From assembly GCA_051362555.1 (NCBI GenBank), contig CM120640.1, positions 66,628,788-66,692,787 of the forward strand: DNA of 64,000 bases. Direction: 5' to 3'. The DNA comes from Lingula anatina. Lineage: Eukaryota; Animalia; Brachiopoda. The notes beneath the pieces are model-generated. The model searched no databases, was not told where the DNA came from, and saw only the letters and a program-made list of their open reading frames with translations. This document shows, one piece after another, positions 15,611 through 41,777 of this stretch (its first letter is position 1; each line of letters begins with the position of its first letter). The position numbers and the translations under genes were made by a program.

Positions 15611-15619
15611 AAGTTGAAT

Positions 15620-16028
15620 GGAAAATAAGACATAAGGCTTGGCAAGGCAGACAACTTCTGGTCTAAAATGATATTATTTCATGAAATTTGAACATCTGGA
15701 ACTTCTGAGCACCTACCATTTCAAGAATTTCAACCAAAATGACCTTTTCTTTATTTTAATTAATTTTTTCTGTAGGAAATTTATGGCACATTATTGTAAC
15801 TACAAAATTGTAACATTTAGTCCCTTATATCTCCAAAACTGGCAGAGATAGGTCCACAGTTACTATTAAATTTGAATAGGAAGTCACATACTGGCAATAT
15901 AACTGTGACCTTGAAATTGACCTTGGACCTACTTTTTATCATGAACTGAACTTTGCAAATTTTCGTTCCCCTTTATCTCCAAAACTGACAGAGATAGGTC
16001 CATAGTTACTATTGAACTTGAATAGGAA
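15620..16028 (+). repeat. HINE internal fragment (spacer plus ~1.4 units of the 146-bp repeat)
   Basis: Matches 52480-52890. Confidence 0.8.
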
Positions 16029-16034
16029 TAGTCT

Positions 16035-16515: not shown

Positions 16516-16585
16516 CAAAAAATTAATTAGACTTAAAAAAAACAATTAAAAAAAGCATTGGTAGCCATAGTTACCCCTCCCTCTA

Positions 16586-16631
16586 AAACAAACAAACAAG
16601 CAAACAGACAGACAGGCAGACAGACAAACAG
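16586..16631 (+). repeat. (ACAA/ACAG)n microsatellite, left flank of the YR element
   Basis: AAACAAACAAACAAGCAAACAGACAGACAGGCAGACAGACAAACAG. Confidence 0.9.
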
Positions 16632-18321
16632 TCGAGGTTTTTAGGTCTGTTTTTCATTGTGAGGTTCTTGTTAGTACCAACCACACTTATGGGAAGCTAT
16701 CCAACTTGTGGGGCTACAAATGGATACTCCTAATGGGAGGTACTTGTGGGAGAGACCGTTTTTGTGGGACTTCTCAGGTTATTAACTTATGCAGGCTTAC
16801 CCGCTTGGATAAACTGCTTAGATGGAAAATTTACTTAACTGAATCACTCTCTTGAAATAAAGTCTATATTATCATTATTATTGTCTTGTCTAACTTGTGG
16901 CATTACCAGAGAGTAGTTGTGGTGTTTCTACATTCCACTTAATATACACTACCTTATATGCAAAATTAATGAGCGGCAAATAAATTGGATGAGAGAAATG
17001 TAGCAATTATGTGTTTCAGTAATGAGAGTAGTGCAAAAATATGCAGGTTTAAATTGTAACTATTATATTAATAAGTAACCACGCTACCATGAACTTTAAA
17101 AACAAAATTAATCACTGGGAAATGCAGAAAAAATATAATCTCCATACAGTGATTCAAAGCAAACAAATCCATTTTACACATTCACAATAATAATAATAAT
17201 ACCATTTTAATAAAAAAAGTCACTATGCTACCATGAACTTTAAAACAACAATAGTGTGAAATCGTTGAGACATTGGAGAGTTTATGTTACTCATGCTTTA
17301 TTTTAAATGTTCAGTTCAGTAACCATTCACATCGCTTATGTCAGTACAGTAAATGGACTAGTCAGCAGTTCAGCATGTCAGCATGACAGCAAGCAAGCAA
17401 GCAAGCAAGCAAGGTACATAATCTAGGAAAGAAAACAATAAATAAAATGAATAAATACATAAAGAAATAAATAAATACAGGAAACTATAATTTACTAGAT
17501 ATATTGAACATTACATTACATTAAATCGGTTATATACAGCGAGACTTGAAATTTGCTATACCTATACAATGAACACAAATGATATGAAGTTTACCTTATA
17601 ATGCAATAATCATAATTAAAACATTATATACTGAATTACAGGAAGGGTTTACAGTTGATAATTAAACCAATGCGTTCTCATATTTAACATTTATCGTATT
17701 TCATATTAATGACCACACCCTATCAGGTGCTCTATCTTATATACCTATTTTTTTCACCTTTATAATTTATACAGAAAACTTATAAATACACTATGCAAAC
17801 ACATTTGATAGTATAAACACTTACATTATGATTTCTCCCTTTGAACTGTTACAATACACTTCACTACGTTGGGAAATACGGTTAACTGCAGGAGAGACCC
17901 TTCTTGTACAGATTCTATTCACATAAAAAGGCGACATTTCAGGAAAAGTATAAAAATACATAAAATATTGCCTTTTTACGCGCCCTCTTTTCATGGTGAA
18001 AGCACAGGGTGTGATTTTCTTAAATTACATAATTACAAGGGTCCGTTGTAGTTTCATGTGGTGACACTTAAAAAGCGGGACATACAGTATTTAATGAAAT
18101 AGACAATGGCGTTACTTTGATGCCATTCCTAACTTGTAAACGCACAAGTATAAAAACTTAAGAATAAGACGTTTTTAGTCTTAGACAAATGCTCTTAACA
18201 TCTTAACACTAAAGTGTGCGGTACATAAGTCTAAATAAAACTTATTTGGTTCCCGGTCTAATTATACTTTATGCAATCGTAATTCATTCATATCTGATAA
18301 CTGAACAAGGTGAAACAATTT

Positions 18322-21300
18322 TCAACGTAACATTCGATCTATCTTGTTTTTAATTGCACTGGCAGTAAGTTTGCCAGGGTATAGGTCTTTGAATACAGCG
18401 CTTCCTCTGATTTTGGTGGCGATTTCCTTCAGACCTGGCAGCTTCTTGCGGTCAAAACTCTGAGGAAAGAGGTTTCTCAACTCATTCTCTTCTTCTTCTT
18501 CTCTCCAGTTATGCCTCTGCACAGGTTTGCGCTTCTTCCGCCCGCCTCTACTCTCTCCATCTTCTAAAATAGACAAAATGATAATTAACATTCCAAGTCC
18601 AAACTGGTTCTATCATTCTTAAGGAAAAAGTTCTCGAACCTGAGAACTAGTTGGGGCTATTCCATGTGAGATACTAGTGAATATATCATATTGATATGTA
18701 CATGACATTACGGTTATGTGCCATGAATTTCGAACAGTAGAAAATAATTAAATTTGGGAAAAGATCGTTCTGGCCGAAATTCATGAAATGGAGGTGCTCA
18801 GAACTTCCGAAAGTTCGAATTTCATGGAAATCTGTCAATTTTGACCGGAAGTTGTCTGTTCGTCGCTAGGCCTTCTGTTATCTTCTCTCGACGATCTATT
18901 TAGAGTTACCATAATGTATGATGTGTGAGTGTCGGTAATTGCGACCAAAGGTATACACGTACTTTCACCCGATCACTGTGTATGGCCCATAGATAGAGCG
19001 GTACTGTTGTTTAGGGCCGCAAAACAGCATCGTTATCAGTAGTGTCGTTTTTCAAAAGCGATTTTGGCAGCCAGAAACTAGTGTCTTTTTTCAAAAATGA
19101 TCCTGGCGCTCAGAACGGGAGTGGACGGAGGGAGAGACGGCCGACGATTAGCGTCTGCCACGGCCAGATAACCTTTACTATGGAAGCTTAGTGTTACCGT
19201 TGCTCCTTTCCGTGCACTGACACCGAGACGACAGCCGATCAGTGTCTATGGCGCACGTGCAGGTAGCCTTCATCTGCGATAAGTGTCTTCCGCGACCAGG
19301 TTCGTTGCCTTTACCGTTAAAGTCGGGCGGAACTTTACGCGCGAATGCGTCCTCATCTCGCCGTTCGCGGGTCGGTGTCTCTGATGCATACGTAGCCTTC
19401 CCTGCAGAAGCCGGCCTCAGCACTACGACCTCTCCTCCGCACAGGTAGACTTCGCCACTGCCCGGAATGTGTATTACGGTCTCTCTCCGTCGTGCGCTGC
19501 GACCAAGATGACCGCTGATTGTTGTCTGCGATCAAATATACTAGGTTTGGGGGGGGGGGGGGGTGCAGGGCCGTTTTTTTTTTTTTTTTTTTCGCTCAGG
19601 CAACCCAATCTTAACTCATTGTCCCCTGCAGTGACTGCTGCACGATCCCCTACAGCCATTAACACCAAATCTGGCCACCACCATGTGGTGGCGCCACTGT
19701 CAGCACTCTCCTATATCCCTGAGGAAATTCAATATGGCCTTTTTCTAGGTCTGTTGTTTTGTTTGTTCCAAATTTTCAGGGTTCTTAAGGCATGAAATTG
19801 GTATAATATGAAATTCTTTATAACTGGACATATTCAAAATATTGTTATTTATTGAATGGGGAAGATCAAGTCCGAATTATTTGGTCTATAAAAATTGAAC
19901 AATGAATATAAGTTCAACAACTGTTTATAAATACGGTATATAAAATATACATCATAATACTTCTTTAGATTATATCAACAGGTACAAAAAAAGACAAAAT
20001 TCTACAAAATATAATTAAAAGATGAGCATCAGATTACAAAAAAGTATATTTATTATCTATATTATGCAGTTGTGATAAGATAAGCATCAACTTAAAAATA
20101 CTACATGAACCCTGACACCTAGACATGCTTTTAGTTGTTCTTTCCACTTAGAGTCATTGTATGTTGCATATGCATTTATATTTTCCAACAAATTGTTCAG
20201 TATTTTATCAGTAAAGAACAGTTTTTAAAGTCTAGTTCGTCTTTGTCACCCGGCAGTTCATGTGTGAATCCAGGTAGTTCACCACAGAAAAGCTCCTTGT
20301 CCACCTCCCACAGATCGTTTTCCCACTGACTTCTTCTAAAATCTTCACTAATGCTGCCTAATTCACTTTCAGACTATGTCTGTAAAGTGTTATTCAAAAG
20401 AAATATAGCTCAAATTATTGCTGTCAGACTCACTGTCACTAACAAATCCCGAAAATTCAGACCCAGAGCTCTCATGAAAAATACTCTGTATTTCCTCCAT
20501 ATGTAGATTTCCCGCAACCCTCAAAATGTTTACATTTTGTTCTATAGTACTCTCCTTTTGATTGGCCAAAAGAAAAGCAACAACCAATCAGAAAATGAGC
20601 TATTTAAAACCTACCTATCAAAGTTTCTTTCTCATGCCGTCATATGAAGTCGCTAGGCAAGGGGCCCGCCATATTGGATGCCGTCATATGACGGCAGTCG
20701 GGAATGGGTACTATTAATATTACGACGTCAAATGACGACGCTCGGGATAGAAATAAGAAAACATTGTCGGCAAATGACGGCGGTAGGGGACAATGAGTTA
20801 ACCAGCAGCAGCAACTGATTTCCTGGCGCATAGTTGCGTCAATGTACGCATTTGAAAAGCGTGTACGTTTTGTCATTGAAACCATCTTCAAACAAACGCG
20901 AGAGATAGGTAATCTAGAGTAAACCGAAAAGGCAGTTTTTATATTCGTTCAAGGGACTGGAAGATCGTCAATGGGAGATAGTGAGCGATCTGAGCGCGAC
21001 AATAAGCCAATTTCCACACTAGTAGTTCATGGGACTTCGTTACTATATTCGTCAGCAAGAGATCGTCAGCGATTCGAGCAAGCATAGAAGCTTGGACTTT
21101 TTGTCCATGCTAGAAGGCAATTTTCATGTAGTCAGCAGGATATGGTTTGCTGGTTTGCGACAGGGGCGTAACCAGGCATACGCACGGATACACTGTGCGT
21201 ATATAATTTTTTGGCCAACCATGATATTATTCTTTATAAATCTAGTGTACTTTTCAAGGAATATCATCGAAAATCCCCTTCGATTATAAGTTAATGTCAC

Positions 21301-24300
21301 CTGAATGTACAAATTCTCTGTATAATTTATATATGCACCATTGTTCTGACACCCTTCTCGTTTGCTTTCACAGAACTGAGGTAAACAATACTAGTTACCA
21401 TCTGAATTCCGATCTTAATCGTCCATCTAGCTGGAACTTGCTTTACCTCTTAATTAGAGGGTAAAGTGCCCTTCAGCTCACAGGTAGCTTTTGTCTTGAG
21501 TGTATCGAACGTGATATTTATCTCAGATAAAAATCTACCTGTGTGTTATTTTCAAAGAGCTGCTCCAGCAGACCTGGGGGCACTAGATAAATCTGATCGT
21601 CGGGCTAAACAAGGAGCCAGAGAAACAAAGGAAGATTGATTTTTCCTGCAAAGTTTCAAAGAATTTTGACACGGACTTGATCCAGCTTAACCCTCCAAAC
21701 TAACGGGGTGGCATGGGCAATTTTTACAAAATTTACAAACAATTAAACTTAGATATATTACAATTTTATCCTTTAATATAATTTTGGGAGGCATGCACCC
21801 GCATGTAAGCTGGGTGATGTCAGTAAGCCCCTAGTTAAATAAATATACTCTTATGAGCAAGGCTTTTCCCAGCGAACCGTCCAGCCGTCATTTGGACGGC
21901 CGCTGACATCACCGGACGGCCTATATTTTCAAAGACGGCTAGACGGCTTGCGACTTTTTTTAATGACGTCTTGACTTGTCGGGACAGCCGTGGACGTTGT
22001 AAGAAATTTTCTTAGAGTAATTTGACGTACCTAGCTTTTATGATGCGTCACAGATGAATGGTACTACTTTGTAGTGTACGCTGATATTCAGTCACGACGA
22101 AACTACTTCCTAAAGCTTACAAAACACAATAAAATGTTTCTATGAACTTTAAGATACACATTCCAACCGTATGCAGCAGTGACAAGAGTGACCTTCATGC
22201 GGTACAAAACACTAAGCAAACTACAGGCCAATTTGTGAAAGGGGACACCTTCCGGACCTTCATACGCACGGCAACTGACAAAGCTGATTGACAAAAAGGA
22301 AAATTTCAAATTTTCAGCGAGAGATCGTTTGCAATCCGAGAGAGACCAGGAGGCAATTTTCATATTTGTTAAAGAGACTTCGTAAGCCAAAGGGCGAGAC
22401 GAGAACGCAATTTTCGTATCGTCAGCGTCGCAATCCGAGTGAAACGAGAAAGCTCACACTCGTTCAGTGGCTTTCGTTTGCGGCAGATCGTCAGCCGGAG
22501 ATCGTTCTCGATTGTTTTTAGCCCTTCATCCCTCCCCATTGGAATTTATAATTTTTAAAAATATTTTTCATTTCATTTGTACATTTCAAGGGACTTCATT
22601 AGCGGAAGATCGTCAGCGGGAGATCGTGAACGATCTGAGCGAGACAAGAAAGCAATAATGGTAATCTTTATTGCAGCTCTTAATATTGCTCCAGGGCTAG
22701 ACACTAACTTTTATGAGCACCTGTCCTTCGGACAGGTGGTCATAAATTTGACCTGTCCGATTTTCAAACCAACCTGTCCAACAAAACCAATATTTTTTTT
22801 TCTATTCATACCCAGAACTTTGTAAATTAATATGTGTAGTCATACATTTAATGTATTTATTACCAAAATACTCAATCAAATGAGCTGGGAAAATGCACCT
22901 TAAAGTGAATTTATTTTCAGATAAAAAGTTGTTTTTTCATACTTGTGAACTCCTGAAGATTAAATCTTGCATATAAGTCTGATTTAACATAGTTCCAATC
23001 AGGGCTTCTCCTAGGATTTGGGGTACAGGGTCTACTAATTGTAAATCTGCAATTTGATAACAGATTCACATGAAGTTTAACCACAGCTAAAAAAAACCAA
23101 AAAAAAAAAAAAAAAAACCAAAAAAAAAAAAAAAACCTGAGCGGGAAGTGGGGAGGGGGTTCTGTTAAATTAATTTTATTAAAATATTCAAAATTAATGA
23201 TATTTGAATATAGTTCAATGAAAAGTTAAATAATATTCATTTTATAATACTTAACTTTTATTTATGTTAAGAATTTGACTTCTTTAGGGGTTATCACGTG
23301 TTTGATTTTTTTTAAATATATGAATTAAATAATATCAGTATAAAAAGTTCCCCTTCTTTTTATTTAAATTCTCATATTTGTTATTACTACCGTAATTTCT
23401 TCCTTACATCAATATCACACTGGTATATGACAGCAATGTTAATTTATCATATTCCAGCACTAATTTTTTTAACTGTAAATAACATAGGTGCTAGAGTCAT
23501 TAAAGAAAACATCATACAAAATTTCAGGTCATATTTTGGCAAATAAACAACATTTCAACAAGATCATCAGTCCAAAAGATTTCACTTTCTATAGTGAGTA
23601 GATAGCATACAACGTATTTGATTGACAGGCAGTATGTTGCCTTGACAACGAACTAGATATAGCCAGTTCATCCAGTTCAATCTGGCTTTGTACCCAGTAC
23701 AGTACCTGTGTAGTTCCTGTTTTTGGAACGGTCTTTATTACCAAAGCACGTAGATTTTGAACTAAATAATATTTAGTAAAGAACCTGAAATGTGAATAAA
23801 TTTTGTCTGATGAAGTTCTGGAGGGTGTTCACTTTCATAATTTGGCGGTAAGTTTACTCAGACTTCGTTTTGCGACTGCATGTGTTTTGTGCCAAAAGTA
23901 GGTCATTCTATTCAATGCCGTCTAGGAAGAGAATATAAGACGTTAGGATGCAACAAAAAAAAAAAAAGATTTTTTAAAGACTTTTGCTCCAAATTTCTCA
24001 CAAAACATGACCTGTCCGTCGGACAGCCAACCCTGCAACTTCACCTGTCCGAACTGAATTTTAACCTGTCCCGGACAGGCGGACAGGCGCTAATGTCGAG
24101 CCCTGTGCTCTTTTGTTCTGTTACTGAAGTCTCTACTGTTAACAATGCTATTGTGCGCCTCAGCAAAACTACCGATCGCTATCTCACACCGAATACTGCG
24201 GTGAAGAAACAACAGCCCGACAGTACAACTCTTAATAGATTCTCCTGTTATCTGAATGAATGGATATGACGATGTTGTTTAGCGTCCTAAACTAACTGCA

Positions 24301-27300
24301 CTGATCGTTATCTTGCACCTTGGGCCGCACACGTAGTACTCAGGTAAAGGTATGCTAGGGCAACATTGCCGACTGTTAGATCTTTATAAGCGCGAGAATA
24401 GCCCGGTGGCCGATTTTAAGGTGTACGAAATTCACGAAATCAAGATTGCGCAAAATTGCTTACTGGCCGAAATTCATGGTCCAGAAAAAACTCCAGACGG
24501 CCGATTTTAAGATCGTTCGAAATTCAAGAGCCGTTCGAAATTCATGGCACTTTACCGTACTATTATAGAAGCTTAACATGAACTATATAAAAAAGCTAAA
24601 TTTGGTCTTATGAATCAACCTCTTGGCTTATTCCCTTCCTATTTATTACAGCTTCTGTTCCCTACTATCACAAACAAAACCTACCTTCAAAGTCAAAAAC
24701 AACAGGTGTAGCAAGTTCATCATCCTCATCATATGGGTGAGGCATAAACTCTGGTTCATCAGCATTAACGTCTTCCTCAGGGGCATCAGACACAGAAACG
24801 ATGTCTATAAAATAAAACAAACATAAAGCTATGCAGTCACAAATTATATAGTAAAATTTTTTTTTTCATTTAGGCCTAAGAAAAAAAGTTGTTTGTTTCC
24901 TGTTACATGGTAAAGAAAAATTAGGGTAGGTCGGTAGGGATAACATTTTATTTTATTTTATTTTTTTACTCTCTCAAATCACAGGGTAGGCTACTTCTTA
25001 TTTTATTTTATTCAATGTTCCTATGTATCTTATCTGGTATTTGACATATATGAAATAAAACAATATATTATCTCTGCCAAGAAACTAACACACTATGTGA
25101 TATTTTATAGCTCCAATATTATTGATGAATATTCCAATATGGCATTGCATTGAATACTGTACAGGAATTAATTTGACAAATGACTAGATCTACTTAGTAA
25201 CACACTGAATTTCCGCCAAACTTTCGTAGTGAATTTCAAATACCATTATAGTTACTATTAAAACAAGAGCTGTCAGAAAGGACAGCAAAGCTCGCGGGGT
25301 ATATATAAATTTGTTAGCATGTAAATAACTTGAAGTATATAAATACAACTTAAATGATACTCGTAATTCTAGAGATATAACACCTTAACGCAATTTAAAA
25401 AACACACAATTCTACAATATTGCAGATGAGTGACTCCCAGCTAATTATTTCAGCTTATATATTTCTCACTTACCATTATATTAAATATAAAAGCAATATT
25501 CAGTCAGTACTTACGTGCATACATATTTGTCAAGAGAGAAATAAATACTATTGTAGTCGGAGGATGAAGCAAAGATTATTTAAAATTCTCATTATAAAGT
25601 AGCAGTAAAATAAAAAAAAGCTACCGAAAAGGAGGCTATATATGGGGGTCGGTCGGAAGCCAAAACTTTTTTTTTGCTAGTGGCTTTAAAATGTTATGGG
25701 TCGGGTACTTTTTCATAGGGATGGTCGGGTAACAGGAAACAAACAATTTTTTTTCTTAGGCCTTATTTCATCATGTTATGTGTTGTGTATAAGTAGGTCA
25801 GCTTATGACGTCACCATATCGCGAGAGCATGAGTATCTCGAGAGCGTTAGTTTAGACAGACACTGGGAGTATGAACGGATAGGAGACTGAGTTTTGTTTT
25901 GGGACTTTTGAAGGAGAATATATTTTTTTTTTTGGAACCTATTTACCACTGAACCGACACTCATATTTTCTACTGGAACTTGCATTGTAATTACTGTGGG
26001 ATTTCATCGGACACTTTCACTGAACTTTGAGCCGATTTGTCTCCATTCACTCTCCAGTCGACGGATTCACATCGGACTTTCACACAGGACACTTCAATGC
26101 TTTCAGATAGGTTTATTTGTGTATTAAGAATAGCTTATTGTTATTGTCATTAGTTTATTTAGTTTTAATAAAATATTAAAACTTCTTTAAATCTTTTGTC
26201 ATTGATTTTTGCTGGCATTGGGTACTCTGACCCGTAACATATGATTTAAATTAATTACAAAAATATCAAATACAACTGTATCATAGATAACATTGCAGCA
26301 ATAATCTGATACATAAGTAAATAGAAATATATTCTATTTGTGTTTTACCTGCAAAACCTGCCTTGTTTAACTTCTCGATGTCTATTGAGTTCATCCCTTG
26401 CTTCCAGTAATCTCCAACCTGGTTTGTGTCCTGGAGAAGCAGAAGCTTACTAACATCTAACCGCTCAATAACACTACTATACTGGCGGTAGAAATCACGG
26501 TGTACGTCCCATGTATGGCCCATGTGATTTAGTACATGTACCATGTCATTCTTATCCAGAGACAGAACCTGAAAAATATTGATATTCCATTTTCTAAATA
26601 AAAGAAATCCAAAACTGCATTCTTAAACCATATTCATTGAGATTCAAGATTCCCCTGAAATAATTAATGATGCGTGACTTTGAAGTAACTTACTTGAGTA
26701 ATGCAAGCCATGTACTTCTGCAACCTTGTAGCAACGATCAACTCTGGTCTCTCCAGGTTTCCAGCAGCCGTTACTGTGTGCTTAAGTGCATAATACCCTC
26801 GAAGTATTGAGCCGTCTATGAAAAGAAAAAAAAAGAAAGAAAATAAGACCATTTTACCTGGTTAACATAATATCTACAAGATAGAAGATTTAACCCGTAT
26901 CATGAAACAGTCTTGTCACATAAATATAAAGCTTGGCAAGTCATCCCCTCAGTATTATCTTGTTCTAACTACATCCTCCAAACTTATTGAGTTTTTGATG
27001 TGTGGAATAGGAAAATGTTCTATCTAAACTTAATTAGACCATTAAAGCTGGTATGGTTTCCCATATAAACAATATTTTTTTCTTATTTGTTCTAAATAGA
27101 AGTGAATCAATTTGATAATGGTCTAAGTCCTCATTATAGAGTTGTATTTTGTTATATAAATTATTTGATCAATCTCATCAAAATATTGTTCCCTCAGTAT
27201 TATCTTTATCTATGTCTTTAAACTGGTCATTTGAGGAAAATGAGTGTCATGAGAAAATGGGAAAACAATATGGTCAATTAGACATAGAACATTATTCAAT

Positions 27301-30269
27301 TTGCATATGGTGATATATCAAGTAGAATTACTCCCAATCTAAACATTTTCAAATATACACAAAAAGGAAAATAGTTTTTAGACATTTAAAACTCTTAAAT
27401 ATATTTTAAAAATGTAAAAACAAAAATTGATAAAAAAATGAGATTATTGAATTTTTAAATTCAATTTTCTCAAAACATTAGTTTCTAGACATAGAACAAG
27501 ATAATACTGATAGGACTAAGTGTTAGGATAAAAAACAATAAATTCACAGACAGCAACCTCAAAAGTATATGTCTGTTCAATTTTACTACAATAATTTATC
27601 TTAAAAAGACAAATACTTCAATCAGGTAGTTGGAATCTATTCATTTAAGAGCTGCTGGTAATACAGAGTAGATCTACTCACTACTGTTGCTCGTAAAGAC
27701 AAACATGCTCTCCACATGGAACTTCTTTCTGAGCTGTTCGTTTGCGATATATCCCAATGGTTTGATGCAGTCCCGAGGGATAATGAGGGGTACTTTTCGG
27801 TCTTTCTATAAAGAAATATGAGGAAGATGAATATGTAGACAGATTTATTTCCATAAGATAAAGATATTAAGTGCTACAAACCTCAAAGAACTAAATCAAT
27901 ATCTATTGAAAATGATTCCAAAAAATATGAATAAGCAAGACCTCTTACTTTTCCTCTAATTTCCACCACTTCTTGGGATGTCACCAATTTCAGTTCGACT
28001 TCATTTAAATGTTCTTTGAGGGTTTCGTGTGTTCCTTCAAGCCCCTTCGTCCGGTTAGTGTACTGCTTCATCCTGTAAAATAAGAAAATGGAATTCCAAA
28101 TAATAGCTCAAAATGAATGATAATGATACACTAAAAAAGAATAACATCACAGACAGAAGTTAACCGGAAAATGAGAGCAACAACCACATTCTTAAAACAG
28201 GCCTTACCTAAGTGTTTGAACTTCCCCTGGTCGACGTCTGTTGTAACTTATGAGTCTTGCCAGGACGAGAAGTTGTAACTCCCGGAAATCATCATGAGTC
28301 TGTGGTACTTTGAGGTTTTCTGAACTGAGTTCACCCTTCAGATATTCGGCGACCTTCACTATGTCCTCTGGTATAGGTAGTTCAATCTTCGTATTCATCC
28401 TTCTCTCCCTAAGGACATGTCGTGCCCGTTTCTTCACGTCTATACACCACTTATCCCTAAACTTATCCATAAATCTCTTGGTAACTTTTCTGTTTTTTTC
28501 TCCTCGTTCCTTGTCGTCATCATCAATGGCTATTGATATCTTGGCATGACACATTTTGATTATATCATAAGATAATTTAATTGCGTTGCTTGGAGCCTGT
28601 AAGTCCTCTTCATCATCATCACAATCTTCCACATTTCCACACACTTCGAAGGCGGCTGTAACAAAGTTCTTGTACTGCAATGGGTGTATAGCATCAAAGA
28701 AGGATAGATTTTTCTGCAGCTCATCAGTTTCTTGCAGTTTTCTCAGTTCAATGAGGAGTCTAGCAAGCAACCTCATTACCGAACTGGCGTAGTACCGCCT
28801 CATTGCTTTGTTTCCTATGTTGCGGTCCAAGCAACCATTCCCCATCTGAACAATTAGGGGGTCCGTTTTAGCAACTCTTGCGATCTCATCATTCTTCAAA
28901 ATTGTATACACTTCGTTCACTAGGTTAACCGACGCTTTAAGATCTATCCTACCAGCAAGAATATCAGACTGGAGTAGTACCTCTGAAGTCGATTCCTTAG
29001 GGTTATCAGAATTGTGACACACACAGGTTTTACGATGCCTGTAGAGAAGTTGCTTTCTCATCCATACCTTGCAGTGTGGACAAGGACCGTAGTCCTTGAC
29101 ACTCCATTCCTTACCTTCACCAGAGGACGGCCTCCTGCCTGGTATGAACATTCCATTTTCTTTTTTGATCGTTTTTAGGTTGTGTTTGTGGTTGCCACGG
29201 TAACGAATGATGTCAATCTTTTTGGATCTTTCTGTTGATCTAGACGGAAGTTTTAGTATTTCTTGAACTTCTTCCTCATCAGCATGTAAATGTAGGTGTT
29301 GTTCAAAGTTAACAAAGACTTTGTAACAGTAAGGACACACATTCAACTTGTTGTAAACGCGTTCATTTTTCTTTACATCACCCTTCTTGGAGGTAATGTC
29401 TTTTATAACAGGTACTACATAGATACCCACTATTTCACTAGCGAAAAACTTCTCTGGGATTTTACTTTCATCAAATTCAATATCAGCTGGCTCCTGAGAA
29501 CTGAACTCGTCAGGGAGATCACAGGATTTCCTGGAATTTCCACTGTATTTCATCTTTTTCTCCGGAATTTCATCATTATCATCACTATCAGCTGACTCCT
29601 TTTCAGGATCAAAATCAGGATCTCCATCACTATCACTATCACTGTCCGTAAAGCTTATGTCAATGATTTGGGAGGGAGTGGGGTGTTCGTTCTCTGTCTG
29701 CATGTTGACATCATCTCCTTTTTGCTCTGTATCACTGCTCATGACATCTTGGGGAGGGGACGGTGTAATGAGAATGTGGTTTTGGTCGCTCTGCTGTGCG
29801 GTGCCATGTCTGATGTTGGTGGGGTGTTCATTCTCTGTCTGCATGCTGACATCATCTCCTTTCTGCCCTGCGTCCCTGCTCATGCCATCTTGGGGAGGGG
29901 GTTGTGTAATGAGGCTGCGGTTCTGGTCGCTCTGCTGTGTGGTGCCATGTCCGATGCTGGTGGGCTGTTCATTTTCTGTCTGCATGCTGTCATCATCTCT
30001 GTTCCCCAAGACACCATGGGGTGGTGTAATGAGGCTGCAGCCTTGCTTGCTGATCTGTGTGGCATCATGTCTGATGGAGTGTTCGTTCTCTGTCTGCATG
30101 TCAACATCTACGTTCTGCTCTGCGTTTCCATTTTGCCCTACGTCACCGCTCATGCTGTCAGGGGAAGGAGGTGGTGCAATGAAGCTGTGGTCTTGCTCGC
30201 TTTGCTGCAAGGCATCCTGAACATCTGCCTCGAAGGCCTTCAGTGTTGAGGGCTTCTTTTTCCATTTTT
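18322..30269 (-). CDS. Spliced tyrosine recombinase, Crypton-like (~1003 aa from these exons; N-terminus further upstream)
   Basis: GT-AG exons 30269-28208, 28072-27949, 27805-27682, 26815-26694, 26568-26349, 24804-24685 and 18563-18322 join in frame to TGA. Motifs: YNRRRPGEV, RGKKDRKVPLII, ATRLQKYMA, HMGHTWDVHRDFYR, CPYC/CPHC Zn fingers, and a C-terminal Myb/SANT-like WREEEEENELRNLF..LPG. Confidence 0.9.
22230..22650 (+). repeat. Dispersed repeat with internal AGATCGTCAGCGGGAGATCG subrepeats (other copies at 31165-31630 and 20900-21080)
   Basis: Aligns directly with 31175 onward (AAAGGGGACACCTTC...). Confidence 0.75.
22692..24105. mobile_element. hAT-like non-autonomous element with a 5-bp TSD
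   Basis: TIR CAGGGCTAGACACTA / TAATGTCGAGCCCTG, TGCTC duplicated at 22687-22691 and 24106-24110, and subterminal ACCTGTCC repeats. Confidence 0.8.
24873..25762. mobile_element. PIF/Harbinger-type MITE in a YR intron
   Basis: TIR GGCCTAAGAAAAAAA..TTGTTTGTTTCCTGTTAC / GTAACAGGAAACAAACAA..TTCTTAGGCC, with TTA TSD. Confidence 0.8.
25781..26239 (+). mobile_element. Solo LTR (459 bp)
   Basis: TGTT...AACA ends, 4-bp TSD TATG on both sides, and AATAAA at ~26167. Confidence 0.75.
26946..27515. mobile_element. MITE in a YR intron
   Basis: Inverted TCAGTATTATCTTGTTCTA / TAGAACAAGATAATACTGA. TSD not resolved. Confidence 0.55.
29680..30210 (-). repeat. Coding minisatellite in the YR N-terminal region (~4 units of ~42-52 aa)
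   Basis: QQSxQxxxLITPPP..D.MS.D.GQ.GDDV.MQTENEHPT repeated in frame. Confidence 0.85.
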
Positions 30270-33200
30270 CTAAAAAAAAAAGAACAAAAAATATGCATGA
30301 ATTGTTGCTGGGCTATTCACCAGTGTTCACTAGAATAGATGTATACAATTGTTTCTATACCAAAACACCACTTACAAATTGTGTAACTTTAGTAAAATCA
30401 AGCAGGGCAAAGTCTGATGTTTATAAAAAGTAGGATAGAGGGGTACAGCTACAGGATTAATTTCGAAGACACTTTAATAGCCTTGGTTTATAATCCTTAT
30501 GGTAGTTAAACGACTATTATCGGTGCGTTAATTATAGGGAATTAAACCTTAAGCCGTTGGGACCCAGCAGCGATAAATACTACTCTAACTCGGCCTAAAT
30601 TTACTCAGCTCGCTTTTAGCCACCCACTGTGAGCAGGACACCATCATCAATAGAAAAGTACTCCTGCACTTTCATTTAGATAAACAGGGTGATAAACCCG
30701 ATGGGGTGAAAATACCGGCCTTTGTTAGTCAGAACAATAGCAGCCCTCGGATCGCGTCGCGTATTTCTCTAATTAAATGCTCTCAAATTGCCTTATACTG
30801 TTGAATAACCACGAAGAAAAAATAATAACTGAAAGTCCTTGAATAATCCCACCTTTTATAATACTTTTTTTTACATTTCAAATGACGAACATTTTGCTGT
30901 TGCGAAACACGCTAGTAAAAATCGCGCGCTATCTTTCCCGACTTGCGTTTATTCAATTTGATGCACTATAAAATTAAGAAATTTAAAAGTTATAATTATA
31001 TCATTATCAAGGTATTTTATTTCAATTTAAAAAAAATAAATAGTGTATGTATCACAGCTGCATAAATTTTCATCATTATTCTAGTTCTAGTCGTACACCT
31101 TGATACACCGCAGTAGGGTTATAAGATTGCAGTCATTTTAATTATTCGTATGACAAACAAACTGCCAAATTATGAAAGGGGACACCTTCAGGACCTCCAT
31201 ACATAAGGCACCTGGCAAAGCTGATAGACAAAAAGGCAATTTTCAAATTTTCAGCGCGAGATCGTTTGCAATCCGAGAGAGACGAAGAGGCAATTTTCAT
31301 ATCTGCTAAAAAGACTTCGTTAGCCCAGGGAATTATATCCGATAAAATTGCCTGGTAAGCCAAAGAGCAAGACGAGAACGCAAGTTTCGTATCGTCAGCG
31401 GGAGATCGTTCGCAATCCGAGTGAAACGATAATGCAATTCTCATATCCGTTCAAAAGCTTCTGTTTGCGGAAGATCGTCAGCCGGAGATCGTTCTCGATC
31501 TAAGCGAGACGAAGAGGCAATTTTCATATTCATTCATGGGAATTGGTTCGCAAAAGAGTGTCAGCGGCAGATCGTTATCGATTGTTATTAACCCTCCATT
31601 CCCATTGATATTTATTATTTTATAAAATATTTTTCCACTTCATCACACTCCTACCCCATTTGGACAGCCTGTATCCCAATCCTAGAAAAAAGGCTTGGTT
31701 CTGGGTGAAATGATGTAATGGAACTTAATTGAATAGCCGCAATATATTTAATTTTATCTGATGATTTTATTACTGGTGAAAACTTAGCTATGATATTTGG
31801 CGAATTAAATTTATTTTAAATTTACATTTAACCGTACCTGGGAATTTTGAAAATCTGTGCTTAGAATTCTAAAAGGTCAGGTTACGCCCCTGATCCTTAA
31901 CCTACCCCTCGCTGGTTAATTACTAGTTTACTTAACATCACAAAACGCAGTAGATCACTTTCCTGAAACCGCACTAATACGTGTATCAACAGATTTGCTC
32001 GCGGGTTTATGTAAAGGGTGGTTGATTTTAACTTGTGTATAGGCAGAGCTTAGGTTTTGCGTAGCTCGTGAAGTTTATATGCACTTTTTCTCAAAAATGT
32101 TTTAACATGTCCTGCCCCACCAGTCAGCTTTTGTTCATTACATCCGGGATATAGCGGTTTTGTTCATGTCTCTTAAATATATGAGTCGTCGTAGAAACTT
32201 CCAACACTTTACTTGCTTCATGAAATTCTGCCCTTCCATATCAAAGTCGAACATTCTGCGTGTGTTGCTAGACTTTGTTTTGATTATTTTTAGCGACACA
32301 AGTTGCCCTTACGCGTTAACAAGAGTTGCAGCTCTTTGTTAGTAACGAGCTAATTGCACTCTAAACCTACCCCTGGCTGGTTAATTACTAGTTTAGTAAA
32401 CAGTACAAAATGCAGTACAAAACGAAGATCACTTTCCTAAAACAGAAAAAAAAATTCTGTATCAGTTCATATATGCTGTCTCATTCATCTTCACTACACA
32501 AATATGAGCGGTACATGTAGCTGTCGTGTGTACTGGGTAAGGGGGTGGCAGTGAAACATTTGTTATAAATATAGACACAAATAATGTTCGCATCCTTCAC
32601 CCCCTGGTAAATAATTTAAAAAGTGGGTGAAAGATATGTATTGTAGGGTGGCGTTCCGTATTTGTTTTTATTATCTTATCATTTTCTTTTGTGTGAACGT
32701 TCTTTGTCATGAAGTGCGTTGAGTCAGATGGTTTTATCCCCCGAAAAGCTGAACGATTCACTGTCCATCTCATGCGTGTGACAGTTGCTTCTTATATATA
32801 TTTGTTTTAATTTTGTTCGCAATGTATGTATATTATTTGGTATACGTTGCGGTGTACAGAATGTGGTCACAGACATAAATATTTGCATCGTGATAGACTG
32901 GGCATCGAGATCTAGGTGGAGAAGGCAAATTAGGTTTATAACGAAGTTTATGGCCACAGTAATTAGTGGTCGATTTCTCACCTCATTCTCTTCAACCAGA
33001 GGTACAATGTAGTTACAGATAACCATCGCCTGTCTTTATTTCAGGGACATTAGTGCTGGCTCATGACAGCATTGATAGTTTCCTACTCTTTTGTCACTTC
33101 CTCTTCCATTGTCTGTTGAGGTATGTCCGATGAATACCGATAAGGACAGAGATATCAGCACGCATATAACAATACTGCTGGAAGGCTCAAAATTATCACA

Positions 33201-34564
33201 GTTTATGTAATTTTATTTCAAAGATCAACTTAAAGATTGAAAGCACTCACTACCAACACTCGAAATTTGTACAAATACTTTTTTCGAAATGAACGTTCTC
33301 AAACGGAATGTTGAGATGTTGGTATGTGCTTTGTAGGCTGTTGATTGAGATCGGGTTCAGCCCCGTCGTAAGAAAAAATATGTTATAGTGATCCAAAACT
33401 ATGCGATATTATACTCATTTTTGCTTTATTATTATTTAAGATATATTATAATAACATCTGTAGGTGAAACAAGAATGTAGTGATGAAAAAAAAGTAGGAG
33501 GGAAAACCAGAGGACTAGCAGACTCCTTATATAAAATAATGACAGGGAGAAAACCTGATGTGAGAGTGGCCTTTGTCTTCTGTCTTTCTTTCAAATTTTA
33601 CTGCACTGCAGATACCAATGTTTCTAACTTTTTTGTTGAAGAATGCTGATACTGGTACGTGTTACTTTGGAACGCTTGGCCCACGTAGCATCCTAGGGGT
33701 ATTTAAGTTTTCACTGAGACAGGAAAAAAAAAACAGAAGAAAAAATTGCTGAAGTGTTTCCTTTTATTTATACTGATGAATCTGTTATCTGTTTGCCAAA
33801 AAGCATTTTTGGTTTGACCACATTCTCTATTGTGTCTGTCTGAAGAGAAAAAAGGAAACAGGGTATATATTAGAAGCGTTTTACTTGGGAGGGGGGGTCT
33901 ACATATTCAATATACAATGTGTATGCGTACATGAAGAACAATTGCATTATTTTAAAGAAGGTTTAATTACGTTTTGTTTACATTAATACAAACGCTGGAT
34001 AATTTTTACAGAAAGTTAATTGTCCTTAAAACGTCCTATATTTTATCAAATTTTCAGCAAGCAATAATCTGTAAAATGAAGCAAATAAAAACAAACAATT
34101 TAAACACTGAAAATTCTTATGAAAATCAGGCTATTTAAGGGCCCTTTTATTACTTTATATGAAAAACGGACCTATTTAAAACAACAACTTTTACCATCAA
34201 GCAAATGTTGATAACAAAATAATACTATTCATTGCATGCAGTGAATATGTTAGTTCGAACGTTAGTTTGATCTTTTTTTCCACAATTTAAAAGTTTAACT
34301 GTTTTAAAGTTTTAACTTGTTACTTAAAAGTCTAATTTAGTTTAATAGTCTAACCGAACAAATGTTGATTCCATGCAATTAATGGTTATAAAATTTAAGT
34401 TGACTTTTAGATGAAACATTAAAACAAAAATAGTGAGCAACATGGCAACATAAAAACGACCGCAAACAAACCAATAAATTAACACTGTGGTCGGATAACG
34501 CATGTACATGTGCCTACATCGTCTGAATTACCTTTGTTACCGTACTTGTAACCTGGAATTCAAT

Positions 34565-37256
34565 GGGGAATACCCGCTTTAAGGGTCTGCCGCTAGATGG
34601 CGTGGGGGTGAAAGCAGTCCTTCTTAAATCTCGCAGAATCTCGCTCACAGCTTTACACCAGAGTTTAACATGGAGCGTGTGCACGCGCCGCTGACAGTGA
34701 ACCAAGTCAAACGCAATTTACTTGAATGTGGTGCCATAACATCTGGATGAAAATGTGAATTGACTAAAAGGTATGTGTTTTCTTTTCATTTAGTGCTTGA
34801 AAAACACGAATGCTAACTATTTTCCTTGAAAAAAAATCGAACATTAGTCGAGGTGTGTGTGTCAAATCTGACATGTTATGTACATGTAGACTACTGTAGG
34901 TACGAGTAGGCCTACGCTCATATTTTGTTTTAGTAGCACGAAAGACGAAGATTTTTTATACTTAGTAAATGTACTTATTTTTTTCTTTATAAGGTTACCC
35001 AAAGAAGGCCCATATATTGGGGGCAAAGCCTGAAACTGTCGATTTCAGGACCCCAGGACAGCCAACTTCAAGAGCAGGATAAAATGATTACTTCAGGAAT
35101 CTTACCCGTCACTTCACATCAGTGGCAAAGATTGATGTAGCCACCAGTTATGCCTACCCTAAAGCTGACTTACAGGCGGCTGTGATGGACAACAACTATT
35201 GCCAAGTGCCATGAAAACAATAATGCATGGATAGAGGGAATGATGTAAGTGAAAACAGAGGTCTAATATTAAGAATCAGGCCCAAATATGAGAAAGAATT
35301 ATCAAACTAGGTGATGTGTGACATCATAGAAATATAAAATTGTATCTTAACTATTTAATGCTGTAACCATTTACCATGCTTTAATGGGATATGACTATTT
35401 CAGGTTGAGGAACAAACAGCAAAGGACACTGAGCATAGCAAGTTATAACAAGGAAAGAGCGCAATCTGACACAAGGAGAGACAATGGCGGATCACTGCTT
35501 CCAGATTTGGAGAGATAATGTCAGCTACAGAGAAGAAGTATATGAACAAACTGTATGAATAATTGTTGTGTCCAAAACCATTGCAGACACATGACAGTTG
35601 GACCCGGACCTGATTTCCCCTTTTTGGAATGTGTATCTTGTGCACGAATCTGGGCCTAAAGAAAACCCGCGAATACTATACTAAGTTAGAAGGCCAGATG
35701 TTCATTACAAATCGCCCATTCTGCTATTTTGTTGTGTTTACATTCAAAGATCTGTTTGTGGGGTTGATTCATTCTGACGCTGGATATTTTTCTACATGTA
35801 TTTTGCCCAGGATAACTTTTTTTAATGAAAAACACTATAGGAAGTATGTGTCAACCAGTTTATAGAAAGTACCCCTGTATGAGATGGTTTTAGCTGCAAT
35901 CATAATTTTGAAGTGCAATTTTAAAAAATGTTTTCACTAAAATGAAATAATTTGGTGGTGCTATATTCTTTACAAAAAGTACTTATGTGTTTATGCTGTT
36001 TTTAATAATATTTAACTGTAATGAAAAAAAACCTATGATGCTATTTTGTAAAGTATTTTAGTGGGATGAAATAAATTGCTAGTTGTATTTACAGCAAATA
36101 ATTTGGTTTTTCTGCTTTTTAAAGAATTTTCAAAGTGATGACATAATGTGGTGGTTCTATTCAAGTAAAATAATTCATAAGTACTATTTTGTAAAAAGGA
36201 ACAAAAAACTGTGTTAATTTGTAAAATGTTTGCTTTCTTTAATTTTTATTTCTTAAACTGTTACAAAAAGTTTTCCATGCCTACAGTAATCCATTGGCTG
36301 AGAAATTGCAGCTATATATTCAGGAAAGTTATAGCACAAATAAATTATCTAAGTATTACATGGTTTCATGGTTTTTACTATGGACTGAATAATTATTTTG
36401 TTTAAATAAAATATTTGGTTTTGCTGCTTTTTAATGAATTTTCAGAGCGATGAAATAATATGGTGTTTCTACACAAGTAAAACAATTCACAAGTGCTATT
36501 TCGTAAAAAAAGAACAAAAACTGTTCATTTATAAAATGTTTTCTTTCTTTAAATTTTATTTCTTAAACTGTTACAAAAAGATTTCCAAACATGCATTATT
36601 CCATTGGCTGAGAAATTGCATCTATACATGAACAAATAAATTATCTAACTATAACTAGTTTTATGATTCTTACGAGGTAGTGAATAATGATTTTAAATAA
36701 AAATTATTATTTAATTAACATTACCGGTCATGCTCAATACATCAATAAAAAAGGATATTACTTAATAACACAACCTTATGCGGGTAGTAGGCTACCGGGA
36801 CTTATATATATTTACTGACAACTCTTCTGAAATTACGGACATAAGAAAACACACTTTGATAAATCATACTTCCTAGGGGCACTTTCTTGCTATGGAGCTC
36901 TCTTTCCAAAACTTTATAAGTTTTGCCAAGATCAATTAACCTTTTTACGTGTATTCTTTTTGAGGCAACTCGTCTATCTTTAGGGGCCTAATTACTGTTC
37001 CTGGGTCAAGTTGTAACTGACCCTTTAACATGGAAGGTGTGTTGACATGGGCAACCCTTTACTTCAAACGAAGCCCTGAATCCTCAAGAAAATTATGCCC
37101 ACCTTGCCGACTTTGACATTCAGGTACACAACAATACTGAGGCATGTTTATTAAGGCCAGTACCACAGTCCAACGTATACAATATCCAACATGGCGACCT
37201 AGGAAGGACTGAATTCACACTAGCGACACCTGGCGCCAAGCGGGCTGGTATTCCTC
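34565..37256. mobile_element. Internally deleted ISL2EU (PIF/Harbinger-related) transposon
   Basis: TIR GGGGAATACC / GGTATTCCTC and AT TSD. The + strand has YqaJ/lambda-exonuclease remnants (ERQWRITASRFGEI; YYTKLEGQMFITNRPFCYFVVFT). The - strand has a THAP start (MPQYCCVPEC, ATG 37145) fused to a DDE_Tnp_4 tail (RRVASKRIHVKRLIDLGKTYKVL). Confidence 0.85.
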
Positions 37257-38854
37257 ATTGGATATAAAAGTGTAAAGTAAACAAAAAGGTTACTGAGGTG
37301 CATAAGCACTTTTAACAGTTCTATCTAAAAGCTATAACGACTTTGTCGCAATGTAGTTAGCGCGTTCGATATATTGTTGCTTGCACATGTAAAAAATGGC
37401 GCCAATGAAATATCAGCCGCGTGCTTAAAGTCGACTCGACGCGGAATGTAGTTATTGTTTTGAAAATAAAGTTTCTGTGAATGGTGGCCTGAAAAGATGT
37501 TTACAGTGTAATATGAAGTTTTAAAGAACATATTAAACCGCGGCAGCATTAGTATATTCATATCAAGCAGACTCTGTGCATATACGCGAGTCATGCCCTG
37601 CAATGTGAGGGTCGCGCTGTCGACGTCCGGTAAACTGTTCAGGTAAAATTTAAGTAATGCTCGGCAAATCCATAGTGAAATAAGTCAATCAAGTTGTCTA
37701 GCGAGATATATGATGCAAGCACGTTCCACAAGGTTATAATTAACTGAAGCGATCTTAATAGCTGATTCAACGAGCCACACGTCGTTTACCGGATTACATA
37801 ACAGGCAAAGATAAAGTGGTGTTGGCGTCCCGCTGCGGCTTCAACAGCTTATTTTGACAAGGCTCGCGCTACGTGCTGGCTTGAGAAAAACATCATTGTT
37901 AAACCTTAGTGTCGATGCGTTAATTACTTATGGTCTCATTGTCTTCTTCCCACGGCGACCATTCATAAAAAGGGGGCGTAGTTAGGTATTAGACGAATTT
38001 TTCAATCACCCAACGCGTTAGTGGTGCGTTGTCCTCTGACATAATCCGTTACCTGTATACCCGATAAGGGGGTGCACCTATGAATAAATGGTAATTTCTT
38101 TTTTTTTTTTTTTTTTGCTAACAGCAATACAGGAACCTGAAACTTTAAAAATCAACAACAACTCTGAAATTAGGCAGCAACAACAAACAGAATAAGACCA
38201 TGACTAAGAACATTTGCTTCCCTTTATATTTCTCATTTTATTTGGATTGATTATTCTTAAACCCAGAGGAGTCCTCCAAATTTTTTTCTGCTTTCACTGT
38301 AAATGGGGTCAATTTTATTTCAAAGGAAAGATTTTATATTTCTATGGATGTGGTACTATAGGAAGCAAGCTATCTTTGTCTAACAGCAAAATTTGCAACA
38401 AGTAACAATTCACTCAGAAATTCAACTACAAAAACATAAAAGGCTAGGTCTCAGAACATTTGCTTCCCTTCATATTTTCCATTATATTTGAATTGATTTT
38501 ATAGTAATTATCAATAATCATTTATACATGGCGTACTTTAGGAAGCAAATAATCTTGGCCTAACTTCAAAATTTGGGAAAAATCAACAATAACTCTTAAA
38601 ATTAACAATTACATACTTCTACCCAATGACACATAATGATCAAATTTTGCCTCAAAATCCTCCACTTCCCTTGGTTGTATGCTGTACAAAAAACCATCCA
38701 AAATAATTTAAAACTTTATCATTTACCTAAACAATACAATCAACTAATAATTAGACAAATTCATATGATAATGGTACTTTCAAAAGGTCTCAGATCACAA
38801 CTATTTAGGCTCTTTGTTTCCAATTTATTTCAGTAATAAATGGTATTTACTTAC

Positions 38855-38967
38855 GTCATGTTGTCTGATTTCACATAAAACTTGCCATCTGCCATCCTGA
38901 AGACCGGCCATTTTATGGTTTTGGGTAGGGTAGGCACGCTCGCCCAAAATACCTTGTTTTTCGGCAT
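38855..38967 (-). CDS. Probable first coding exon of the YR gene (PWWP/Tudor-like start)
   Basis: TTTTCCAG|ATG...AC|GTAAGT, encoding MPKNKVFWASVPTLPKTIKWPVFRMADGKFYVKSDNM. It ends in phase 2, so at least one linking exon is needed. Confidence 0.55.
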
Positions 38968-39197
38968 CTGGAAAAGAAATGGGGTAGGGCTTAGCACAAG
39001 TGACTGAAGACAGGTGACAATGGTTTTCTAGCCTTGGTGCTTTGAGTCAAATGTGAAGTCATTGATCTCATCCACCATCAAAAGCAAACCCTGGCACTGA
39101 ATTGATATCACAAGAACTGTTGATGTACATATGAATTAAAATAATATTTGGTGATTTTTGTATACTTCAAGGTCCAGGATAATCTCTTTACGAATGA

Positions 39198-39874
39198 AAG
39201 TTTTATTCGAACAGACATATACTTCTGAGGTTGCTGTCTGTATATTTATGAGGTTTTTATCCTAACAATTGTAAGGCTTTATATGTGGCTGGGGATCAAT
39301 CTTTTCAATTTCATTATCAAACATTCATTGGAACAGACATATATTTCTAAGGTTGCTGTCTGTATATTTATGAGGTTTCTATCCTAACAATTGTAAGGCT
39401 TTATATGTGGCTGGAGATCAATCTTTTCAGTTTCATTAACTAACTTTCATTGGAACAGACATATACTTTTGAGGTTGTTGTCTGTATATTTATGAGGTTT
39501 CTATCCTAACAATTGTAAGGCTTTACAGTATATGTGGCTGGAGATCAATCTTTTAAATTTCATTACCAAACTTTCATTCGAACAGACATATACTTCTGAG
39601 GTTGCTGTCTGTATATTTATGAGGTTTCTATCCTAACAATTGTAAGGCTTTATATGTGGCTGGAGATCAATCTTTTCAATTTCATTACCAAACTTTCATT
39701 AGAACAGACATACTTCTGAGGTTGCTGTCTGTATATTTATGAGGTTTCTATCCTAACAATTGTAAGGCTTTATATGTGGCTGGGGATCAATCTTTTCAGT
39801 TTCATTACCAAACTTTTATTCGAACAGACATATACTTCTAAGGTTGCTGTCTGTATATTTATGAGGTTTCTATC
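39198..39874. repeat. 122-bp tandem repeat, ~5.5 copies
   Basis: GAACAGACATA at 39209, 39331, 39453, 39580, 39702 and 39822. Confidence 0.95.

Positions 39875-40588: not shown

Positions 40589-40590
<2 letters not shown>

Positions 40591-40665
<75 letters not shown>
40591..40665. repeat. (TA)n microsatellite
   Basis: Read directly from the sequence. Confidence 0.98.
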
Positions 40666-40666
<1 letters not shown>

Positions 40667-41122
40667 CGGGAAAACTACCAGCCCTATGTCAGCACCTTAA
40701 TTTAAACAAGTTGAAGTCAGCATTGTTAACCGACCAAATAAATTGTTATTAGTTTTGAGGACAAAACTAGGTCGATGAAAATTCCTTTGACAGCTGATTT
40801 ATGAACGCTCATTTACTACTGTACAGTAAAAACCTCCCAAGTCGGAATCCTAAAATGCATGGATGCAGATATTACCTAACGATATAATTCTTTCGGATGA
40901 AATAAACACAGAAATGCAGTAACTATGCATAAACAAAACCACGTGTTCCGAGATCGATTGTAATATTTTTCTCGCCAACATATCGCATTCAAACAAGGCT
41001 TATCCGTTATTATATAACTAGATCTAATATGTAATTATCTATAGAAATACTTGATAAAAATCTTATTGAAACATAAGTGTAAAACATCTTATTTATGGGG
41101 CTAAATGATATCCATTGGACTC

Positions 41123-41310
41123 ACCTTACTGTAAATCGTCTGCTCGTCGTCACTTCTCGGTCTTCAGCAACAGGTGGCAATCGGACGGTGCCTGCGCAGT
41201 CCCCAGTTCAATATGTTTGCCGGTGTATCGCGACCATATATGGCGTCTATTTACCACGCATGCGCAAACGAGCCTCTGCTCGTCTAATAAGTGAGCTGCG
41301 ATTGGTTGGT
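41123..41310 (-). promoter_or_regulatory. Candidate promoter and non-coding first exon of the YR gene
   Basis: CpG-rich patch with NRF1-type TGCGCATGCG (41257-41266), CCAAT (41301-41305) and a strong minus-strand donor AAG|GTGAGT at 41125/41124. Confidence 0.5.
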
Positions 41311-41610
41311 GTGACCGCTAATCGACCATTCACAGCTCGCCTTGTTTCTGAGGCGCGAAACCTCACAATTTTTTAACAGAAAAGGAAGTACTTGAATGTT
41401 GCCATTTTCATGGGACTTTTGAAAACGGACAGACAGCACTGTCCGAAAATCTTGTGAGGTTGGATTTAAAAACGAATTTTGTGAGGCTTTTAGGGGGAGA
41501 TATGGCTTTTTAACTTTGGGCACTTGTGGGAAAACCTCACAAGTCGGTTACAACCGCACAAGTACCTCCTGTACCAGTCAGAAACCTTACAAATACCCTC
41601 TGGTAAGGCC

Positions 41611-41777
41611 AGACGAACAGACAGATAGACAGACAGACAAACAAACAAACAAACAAAGAGACAGACAGACAGATAAACAAGCAAACAGACAGAGAGACAG
41701 ATAAATAAACAAACAAACAGACAGACAAACAAACAAATAAACAAACAAACAATCAGACAAACAAACAAACAAACAAA
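41611..41777 (+). repeat. (ACAG/ACAA)n microsatellite, right flank of the YR element
   Basis: Read directly from the sequence. Confidence 0.95.

Follow-up and report, generated by a model that had tools for sequence, protein, structure and literature searches.

The 64,000-nucleotide stretch of the Lingula anatina (Brachiopoda) genome considered here (assembly GCA_051362555.1, contig CM120640.1, positions 66,628,788 to 66,692,787 of the forward strand; hereafter the window) carries a tyrosine recombinase (YR) gene that lies between two parts of what appears to be one microsatellite. We judge it likely, with some room for doubt, that positions 16631-41614 form a single Crypton-type, CryptonV-like element inserted in that microsatellite, which was enlarged by later insertions and is probably disabled. 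An earlier note, made from the sequence alone, had already proposed one mobile unit with a Crypton-like layout inserted in a microsatellite, and this is supported by paired end motifs, the register of the flanking tracts and the encoded protein. The window as a whole is 35% GC, transposon-dense and of animal type.

Junctions and ends of the element

The junctions, ends and adjoining features are as follows.

16586..16630 (+): left part of a compound (ACAA/ACAG)n microsatellite, the final 5 bp being a putative crossover spacer (left copy)
16631..16920: left (3') end, with a GTC terminus, clustered TTGTG-type subterminal motifs and a 13-bp arm at 16736
41100..41350 (-): GC-rich, promoter-like patch with a splice donor near 41124 (presumed function)
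41345..41614: right (5') end, with TTGTG-type motifs in both orientations, a 13-bp arm and a terminus that matches the unit of the microsatellite
41615..41778 (+): right part of the same compound microsatellite

Two ACAG/ACAA tracts in the same orientation flank the element, as the earlier note had stated. They were called by Tandem Repeats Finder at 16586-16631 and 41616-41778 and recovered by a pattern scan of both strands, which gave seven hits in the 64 kb, all on the plus strand: one for the left tract, four for parts of the right tract and two for short runs of 20 nt at 17391 and 45163. The left and right tracts are the only long ones in the window, and a 19-nt imperfect stretch is common to both. 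Joined directly, they are one base off register, and agreement is obtained only when 1, 5 or 9 bases are removed (0-9 tested). Across each junction runs a copy of an 11-bp direct repeat, the two copies (16621-16631 and 41610-41620) differing by one mismatch. On our reading, each junction has a 5-bp spacer, and the right terminus of the element is a copy of the repeat unit. Taking 5 bp as the terminal direct repeat restores the register (1 or 9 bp would do so equally), and terminal symmetry is limited to the 3-bp GTC. The proposal that an insertion split one microsatellite thus gains support from the register, which is restored once the element and a 5-bp repeat are removed, and from the common 19-nt stretch.

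Both ends of the element read GTC inward and draw on one family of motifs. Their terminal 150 bp have 13 8-mers in common, against a mean of 0.8-0.9 and a maximum of 6 in controls (0 of 422 windows reach 13), while the terminal 250 bp share 14, against a control maximum of 12 (251 windows). The longest shared motif is a 13-bp inverted repeat at 16736 and 41569-41557. Since this sharing lies above all controls, the two ends belong together beyond chance. The promoter-like patch that had been placed just inside the right end is suggestive only: it has a GC content of 50-54%, a CCAAT box and a YY1-like site, but its 16 CpG per 200 bp fall below the at least 18 found in each of the 30 best windows listed.

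The recombinase gene and its relatives

Within these ends lies a minus-strand gene, modelled with nine exons, eight introns that are all GT-AG, and an open frame of 1061 codons.

38855..38967 (-): predicted coding exon 1 with ATG, without homology or RNA support
38623..38681 (-): predicted coding exon 2, without homology or RNA support
30270..38622 (-): predicted 8.35-kb intron; about 3 kb of recognisable repeat, about 5.4 kb of other sequence, no intact open reading frame (ORF) recognised
28208..30269 (-): coding exon 3, with low-complexity repeats, two CPxC zinc-finger-like motifs, the core-binding region and RRRPGE with catalytic Arg737
27949..28072 (-): coding exon 4
27682..27805 (-): coding exon 5, beginning at catalytic Lys786
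26694..26815 (-): coding exon 6; residue 860 (codon 26720-26718) is Gln
26349..26568 (-): coding exon 7, with MGH (H886) and catalytic Tyr895
24685..24804 (-): coding exon 8, an acidic linker
18322..18563 (-): last coding exon, with a C-terminal domain matching relatives; stop at 18324-18322

Seven of the exons are supported by homology, running from 30269 to the stop codon, which lies about 1.7 kb inside the left end, as the earlier note had it. Gene and introns together take up 21 of the 25 kb. The C-terminal domain of the last exon is presumably of the SANT/Myb-like kind. Within the large exon, a 141-bp (47-codon) internal repeat at 29678-30226 preserves the frame. No RNA run was among the runs listed as containing sequence words of the gene (26200-30400), and a polyA run (X12), of which about 6% was read, gave no reads on the last exon and is uninformative on expression.

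The gene belongs to a large family. The full protein matches the relative P0019 with 35% identity over 832 columns (E 4e-133), the large exon has 32 relatives among 7059 candidates, with up to 62% identity, and a profile built from nine relatives reaches 14,065 clusters (50% identity) at E 0.001. Neither the large exon nor the recombinase part of the nine relatives is covered by a Pfam family. Frog genomes carry several copies each, and other named relatives belong to beetles, a wasp, a moth, a sea cucumber and a sea anemone; in relatives at metagenome loci the intron positions are the same as in the window gene. SET domains occur in 10 of 40 long relatives picked from the best 150, and one of the 40 gave a Phage_integrase hit below threshold. 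The family is probably PANTHER PTHR33480.

An AlphaFold model of P0019 (mean predicted local distance difference test score 59.6, core mostly 70-90) matches XerH, XerD, XerA, Cre and the Tn1549 integrase in structure comparison. A second aligner gave XerH at Z 11.6 with a root-mean-square deviation of 3.4 over 154 residues, while type IB topoisomerases, which have the same fold, scored Z 9.9 and below. With Foldseek, the best PDB match had E 4e-3 (none at E 0.001) and a phage integrase E 1.7e-4, and the ESM Atlas returned hypothetical eukaryotic clusters only, with recognition below a reliable level. Judged by the modelled fold of this 35%-identical relative and by its own conserved R, K, H and Y, the window gene encodes a tyrosine recombinase, and the multi-exon YR gene that had been proposed between the tracts stands.

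Family members vary in their N-terminal modules: SET, THAP, zf-AD and BRCT domains are found among P0019, P0060, P0084, P0044, P0052 and P0081, and at least one protein named KMT5A-like, P0019, has a full recombinase motif set. Relatives recur in several environmental metagenomes. Locus L001 (900-11000) contains a 99.95% identical 4.4-kb duplication with a spacing of 5737 bp, and L006, L017 and L021 hold shuffled pieces of the same sequence, a pattern that may represent an amplification chimera, a tandem copy or a circle. The duplication was rejected as a clean circle because it starts inside the large exon. In L010, a (GTCG)n run following the gene was rejected as an element end, because by its layout it seems to be a piece of a small repeat distinct from the element. 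The ends of the window element had no match in the 31 metagenome loci.

Catalytic residues

Residues were surveyed in 181 proteins, of which 167 matched the domain and 142 spanned it. Each of R737, K786, H886 and Y895 is retained by 135-136 of the 142 relatives. At residue 860, Arg is found in 133 of them and Gln in none, and the window protein has Gln, a substitution absent from the earlier note. The His position of the HxxR motif is Thr in 124 of the 142, so that a Thr-x-x-Arg form is family-wide. Consequently, the window protein lacks a complete R-H-R-Y set, the second Arg being Gln here and the His being Thr across the family; this incomplete set marks a damaged copy, not another kind. The second catalytic Arg is needed for cleavage in YR chemistry, and because it is replaced, the copy is predicted to be inactive. 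Going by its sequence, it is probably unable to move itself.

Nested insertions and original size

Much of the interior consists of other repeats.

17260..17920: multi-copy repeat in the 3' region, with approximate limits set by depth bins and the ends of contigs
18711..24557: nested 5.85-kb element, with a 24/28 terminal inverted repeat (TIR) and TA duplication
19615..20797: TTAA-flanked TIR element within the 5.85-kb element
22692..24105: CAGGG-ended TIR element with a 5-bp duplication, within the 5.85-kb element
24873..25762: nested 0.89-kb miniature inverted-repeat transposable element (MITE), with a 27/28 TIR and TTA duplication
~34590..37030: decayed nested transposon, limits approximate
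39197..39874: 122-bp tandem array of 5.5 copies; a fragment is inverted at 27518-27578

A repeat is also present at 31142-31650. By general rules, the element at 19615-20797 would be piggyBac-like and the MITE PIF/Harbinger-like; the decayed transposon is presumably ISL2EU-like, going by its layout. The latter has SAP- and YqaJ-like remains on the plus strand (by eye) and a DDE_Tnp_4 fragment at 36805-36987 (-), whose E of 0.001 is below the Pfam cut-off. The repeat at 17260-17920 has a read depth of about 290-490 in run X3 and 500-1600 in run X6, against 52-101 on either side. The recognised nested repeats sum to 10.4 kb, or about 11 kb with this depth-defined repeat, in agreement with the figure first given; inserts bounded by TIRs and duplications, other repeats and depth all contribute to it. 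About 14 kb is left after their removal, including 3.2 kb of coding sequence and about 5.4 kb of other intron sequence. The original unit was probably 8.5-14 kb long, with one gene and no cargo.

Several further repeats lie in or around the element. A 146-bp tandem repeat family (5709-6225, 12283-12938, 15622-16028 and 52484-55099) has very high depth in DNA runs; its polyA reads are strand-biased (2687 vs 34 at 15753-16003 in X12), and its head and the left end of the nested element at 18711-24557 share about 170 bp. Two fragments of Gypsy-type integrase, both decayed and 84-90% alike, lie at 1883-3575 and 14021-15662, and a zinc-finger-like ORF lies at 13692-14234. An ORF at 43234-43668 (-) resembles a Harbinger/ISL2EU-type transposase fragment by eye, with no meaningful Pfam hit. 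CpG-rich palindromic tandem repeats (74-91 bp units) at 7952-8134 and 10675-11021 are the most CpG-dense sequences in the window.

Occurrence in other individuals

Nine sequencing runs of the same organism (six samples, three studies) contain 47-95% of the sequence words of 26200-30400. For the runs with the best coverage this implies an identity of about 99%, and the best run may itself be the source. Runs X21 and X22, which have the same species label, contain next to none. Reads and contigs were compared over 15000-22500 in 4 of the 22 runs listed, skipping the repeat at the left junction. Contigs from X3 (2834 nt) and X6 (3006 nt), which belong to two other studies, cover the last exon and exit the window exactly at the TA edge (18711) of the 5.85-kb insert, with another 2131 nt (X3) and 2084 nt (X6) beyond that point. 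This insert is therefore polymorphic, as the contigs of these two other individuals do not follow it, and most of the element's size is later clutter. If X3 and X6 also lacked the 0.89-kb MITE, their contigs would end at 27583 and 27536. Such ends would fit the repeat at 27518-27578, where contigs of this kind should break.

Depth over unique 3' parts is 52-59 in X3 and 67-101 in X6, which suggests one or two copies per genome, taking an inferred single-copy level; in X21 it is 0-3. X21 also lacks two multi-copy repeat families that occur in X3 and X6; the 17260-17920 repeat and the TTAA element at 19615-20797 are missing there, and shared repeats differ by several percent, so that X21 may be a distinct lineage.

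Comparison with known systems

Some CryptonV families are reported to target microsatellites (PMC8869645, citing Kapitonov and Jurka 2012, Repbase Reports 12:2034), and in the accessible parts of the literature they are the only animal YR DNA transposons found with such a report. CryptonV is also listed in a table of PMC4455052, and Crypton-V is named as an expressed repeat class in Hydra (PMC13465017). As described by the citing papers, CryptonV resembles the window element as an animal DNA element with a microsatellite location and a YR as its sole recognised enzyme. The window element differs in being long through nested inserts and in having Gln for the second catalytic Arg, although CryptonV is known for this comparison by description only. 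Microsatellite-targeting YR transposons are reported in a database note and barely documented in searchable literature. No description of such an element's ends was found in the literature covered, which leaves out Repbase Reports, preprint supplements and most subscription papers.

Cryptons in general are described as having no TIR and 4-6 bp direct repeats (PMC3212892), and CryptonF-1_cRei as having a terminus that matches its target and as excising cleanly (PMC9977147). On these accounts, CryptonF, A, I and S may share with the window element the lack of a long TIR, a short direct repeat at the junctions and one terminus matching the target. The window family is set apart by two CPxC fingers, the Thr-x-x-Arg form, clustered subterminal motifs and SET fusions in relatives. 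Neither DUF3504 nor GCR1_C was hit at E 0.1 by nine relatives and two window exon ORFs, and the family is therefore not CryptonA or CryptonF by domain. A less likely possibility is that this recombinase family, with its 14,065 clusters and frequent SET fusions, is not CryptonV or extends far beyond it, and that its elements are an undescribed, separate class. In that case the locus would show the end anatomy of the class, with clusters of arm-type motifs, a 5-bp spacer and a terminus imitating the target repeat, and would suggest that intron-rich integrative elements resembling Tn916 home to simple repeats across animals.

The fungal Starships, as presented in PMC10104507, are likewise YR-driven, have a terminus homologous to a short target and span tens of kb. 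In contrast to the Starships of that paper and of PMC13465315, the window element has no DUF3435 captain and no recognised cargo gene, and its length is made up of introns and nested transposons. DUF3435 was not hit in nine relatives (E 0.1) or in 40 more (E 1e-4). Circular intermediates are reported for Starships in a preprint (10.64898/2026.09.21.753150).

Lastly, the YRs of endogenous nimaviruses are reported to combine a C2H2 finger and a SAM-like domain, in some cases over multiple exons, and to insert into host repeats (PMC10871703). The window gene is similar in its finger, SAM-like domain and YR, its multiple exons and its location in a repeat. Judging from the same account, the window element differs in having no viral genes, and its target is ACAG/ACAA rather than a telomere repeat or 28S rDNA. 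A text search of three supplements of PMC10871703 found no recombinase sequences.

Weighing the alternatives

A number of observations count against a microsatellite-targeting Crypton-type element. Targeting rests on one site, as no second insertion was seen, and neither an empty allele nor a circle junction appeared in the reads over 15000-22500. The near-absence from X21 need not mean an empty allele, as this run may represent a diverged lineage, and absence cannot be proved from contigs. The register shift of 4n+1 has a one-in-four chance of arising at random, which makes the register test weak alone, and direct repeats come cheap because the junctions sit in microsatellite sequence. Depth at the 3' end is close to that of rare repeat variants (24-54 in X3, 59-112 in X6), with no visible copy family. 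A microsatellite-bounded end was found in none of the 31 metagenome loci, though most are short or apparently rearranged. The two 5' exons, which supply the start codon, are predictions without homology support. Finally, all exons are in frame despite the Arg to Gln change, as those of a co-opted gene would also be.

Some of these points would suit a real element that did not choose its microsatellite, having landed by chance in a tract within a host repeat or having had the tracts grow later from terminal ACAG-like bases. A single insertion is known, and no repeat-bounded relative is among the 31 loci. Sequence in the left flank occurs in many copies (depth 390-1230 at 16255-16505), so that the tract may be part of a host repeat that is itself common. 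Such tracts, however, make up only about 0.3% of the window, the right terminus matches the repeat unit, and the 19-nt stretch in both tracts is as expected of one split tract. Either version is therefore improbable.

No better placed is a domesticated, catalytically dead host gene derived from a recombinase, fixed here and kept as a DNA-binding protein. The low copy number, the 1061-codon open frame, the loss of the catalytic Arg, the presence in six samples of three studies and the position of all recognised insertions outside exons would fit such a gene, and Crypton domestication is described as common (PMC3212892). Yet the paired ends are still intact, and next to no trace is left in X21, unlike what a conserved host gene would show. 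Moreover, roughly a quarter of the unit without its clutter is coding, and it is thus not unusual for five or six insertions to miss the exons. For these reasons domestication also seems doubtful.

The giant, Starship-like animal element that the earlier note had envisaged, here read as one with cargo, can largely be set aside. It would account for a YR-driven span of 25 kb with a short direct repeat, and some 5.4 kb of the large intron is without assignment. Nevertheless, none of 79 interior ORFs reaches the Pfam cut-off, the gene with its introns spans 21 of 25 kb, the nine relatives have no DUF3435, and the largest insert is polymorphic, the X3 and X6 contigs leaving at its edge. The 79 ORFs are stop-to-stop frames of at least 55 codons in 16631-18320, 18711-24557 and 30270-41300, a set that small spliced novel genes could escape; they gave seven weak hits, the only plausible one being the transposase fragment. 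There is no intact reverse transcriptase or DDE transposase ORF of the element's own, the DDE fragment being assigned to the decayed nested element. Equally remote is a remnant of a large DNA virus of the endogenous nimavirus kind, whose YRs insert into host repeats: the domain list and repeat targeting are similar as reported (PMC10871703), but interior ORFs include no viral gene, viral contigs gave no relative (0 of 9 candidate stretches), no nimaviral recombinase is among the 50 BFVD matches listed, and both ends are present around a single gene.

Proposed mechanism and significance

For the favoured reading, an inserted and later disabled CryptonV-like element, a mechanism can be proposed by analogy with the Crypton model. 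In it, the recombinase would bind to the subterminal motif clusters and cleave next to the 5-bp spacer, which at the left junction is framed by GAC and GTC. As the right terminus copies the microsatellite unit, any ACAG/ACAA tract could serve as a partner site. The element would exit as a circle and recombine into such a tract, and after integration each junction would carry the 5-bp spacer, nearly identical at the two sides (one mismatch), as part of an 11-bp direct repeat.

The locus supplies the two ends together with models of the junctions and of the whole gene, and with these the recombination site could be tested using an intact relative. The element does not extend cargo-carrying giant transposons to animals. 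In addition, thousands of animal proteins now called ‘uncharacterised’ or ‘KMT5A-like’ would be probable transposon recombinases.

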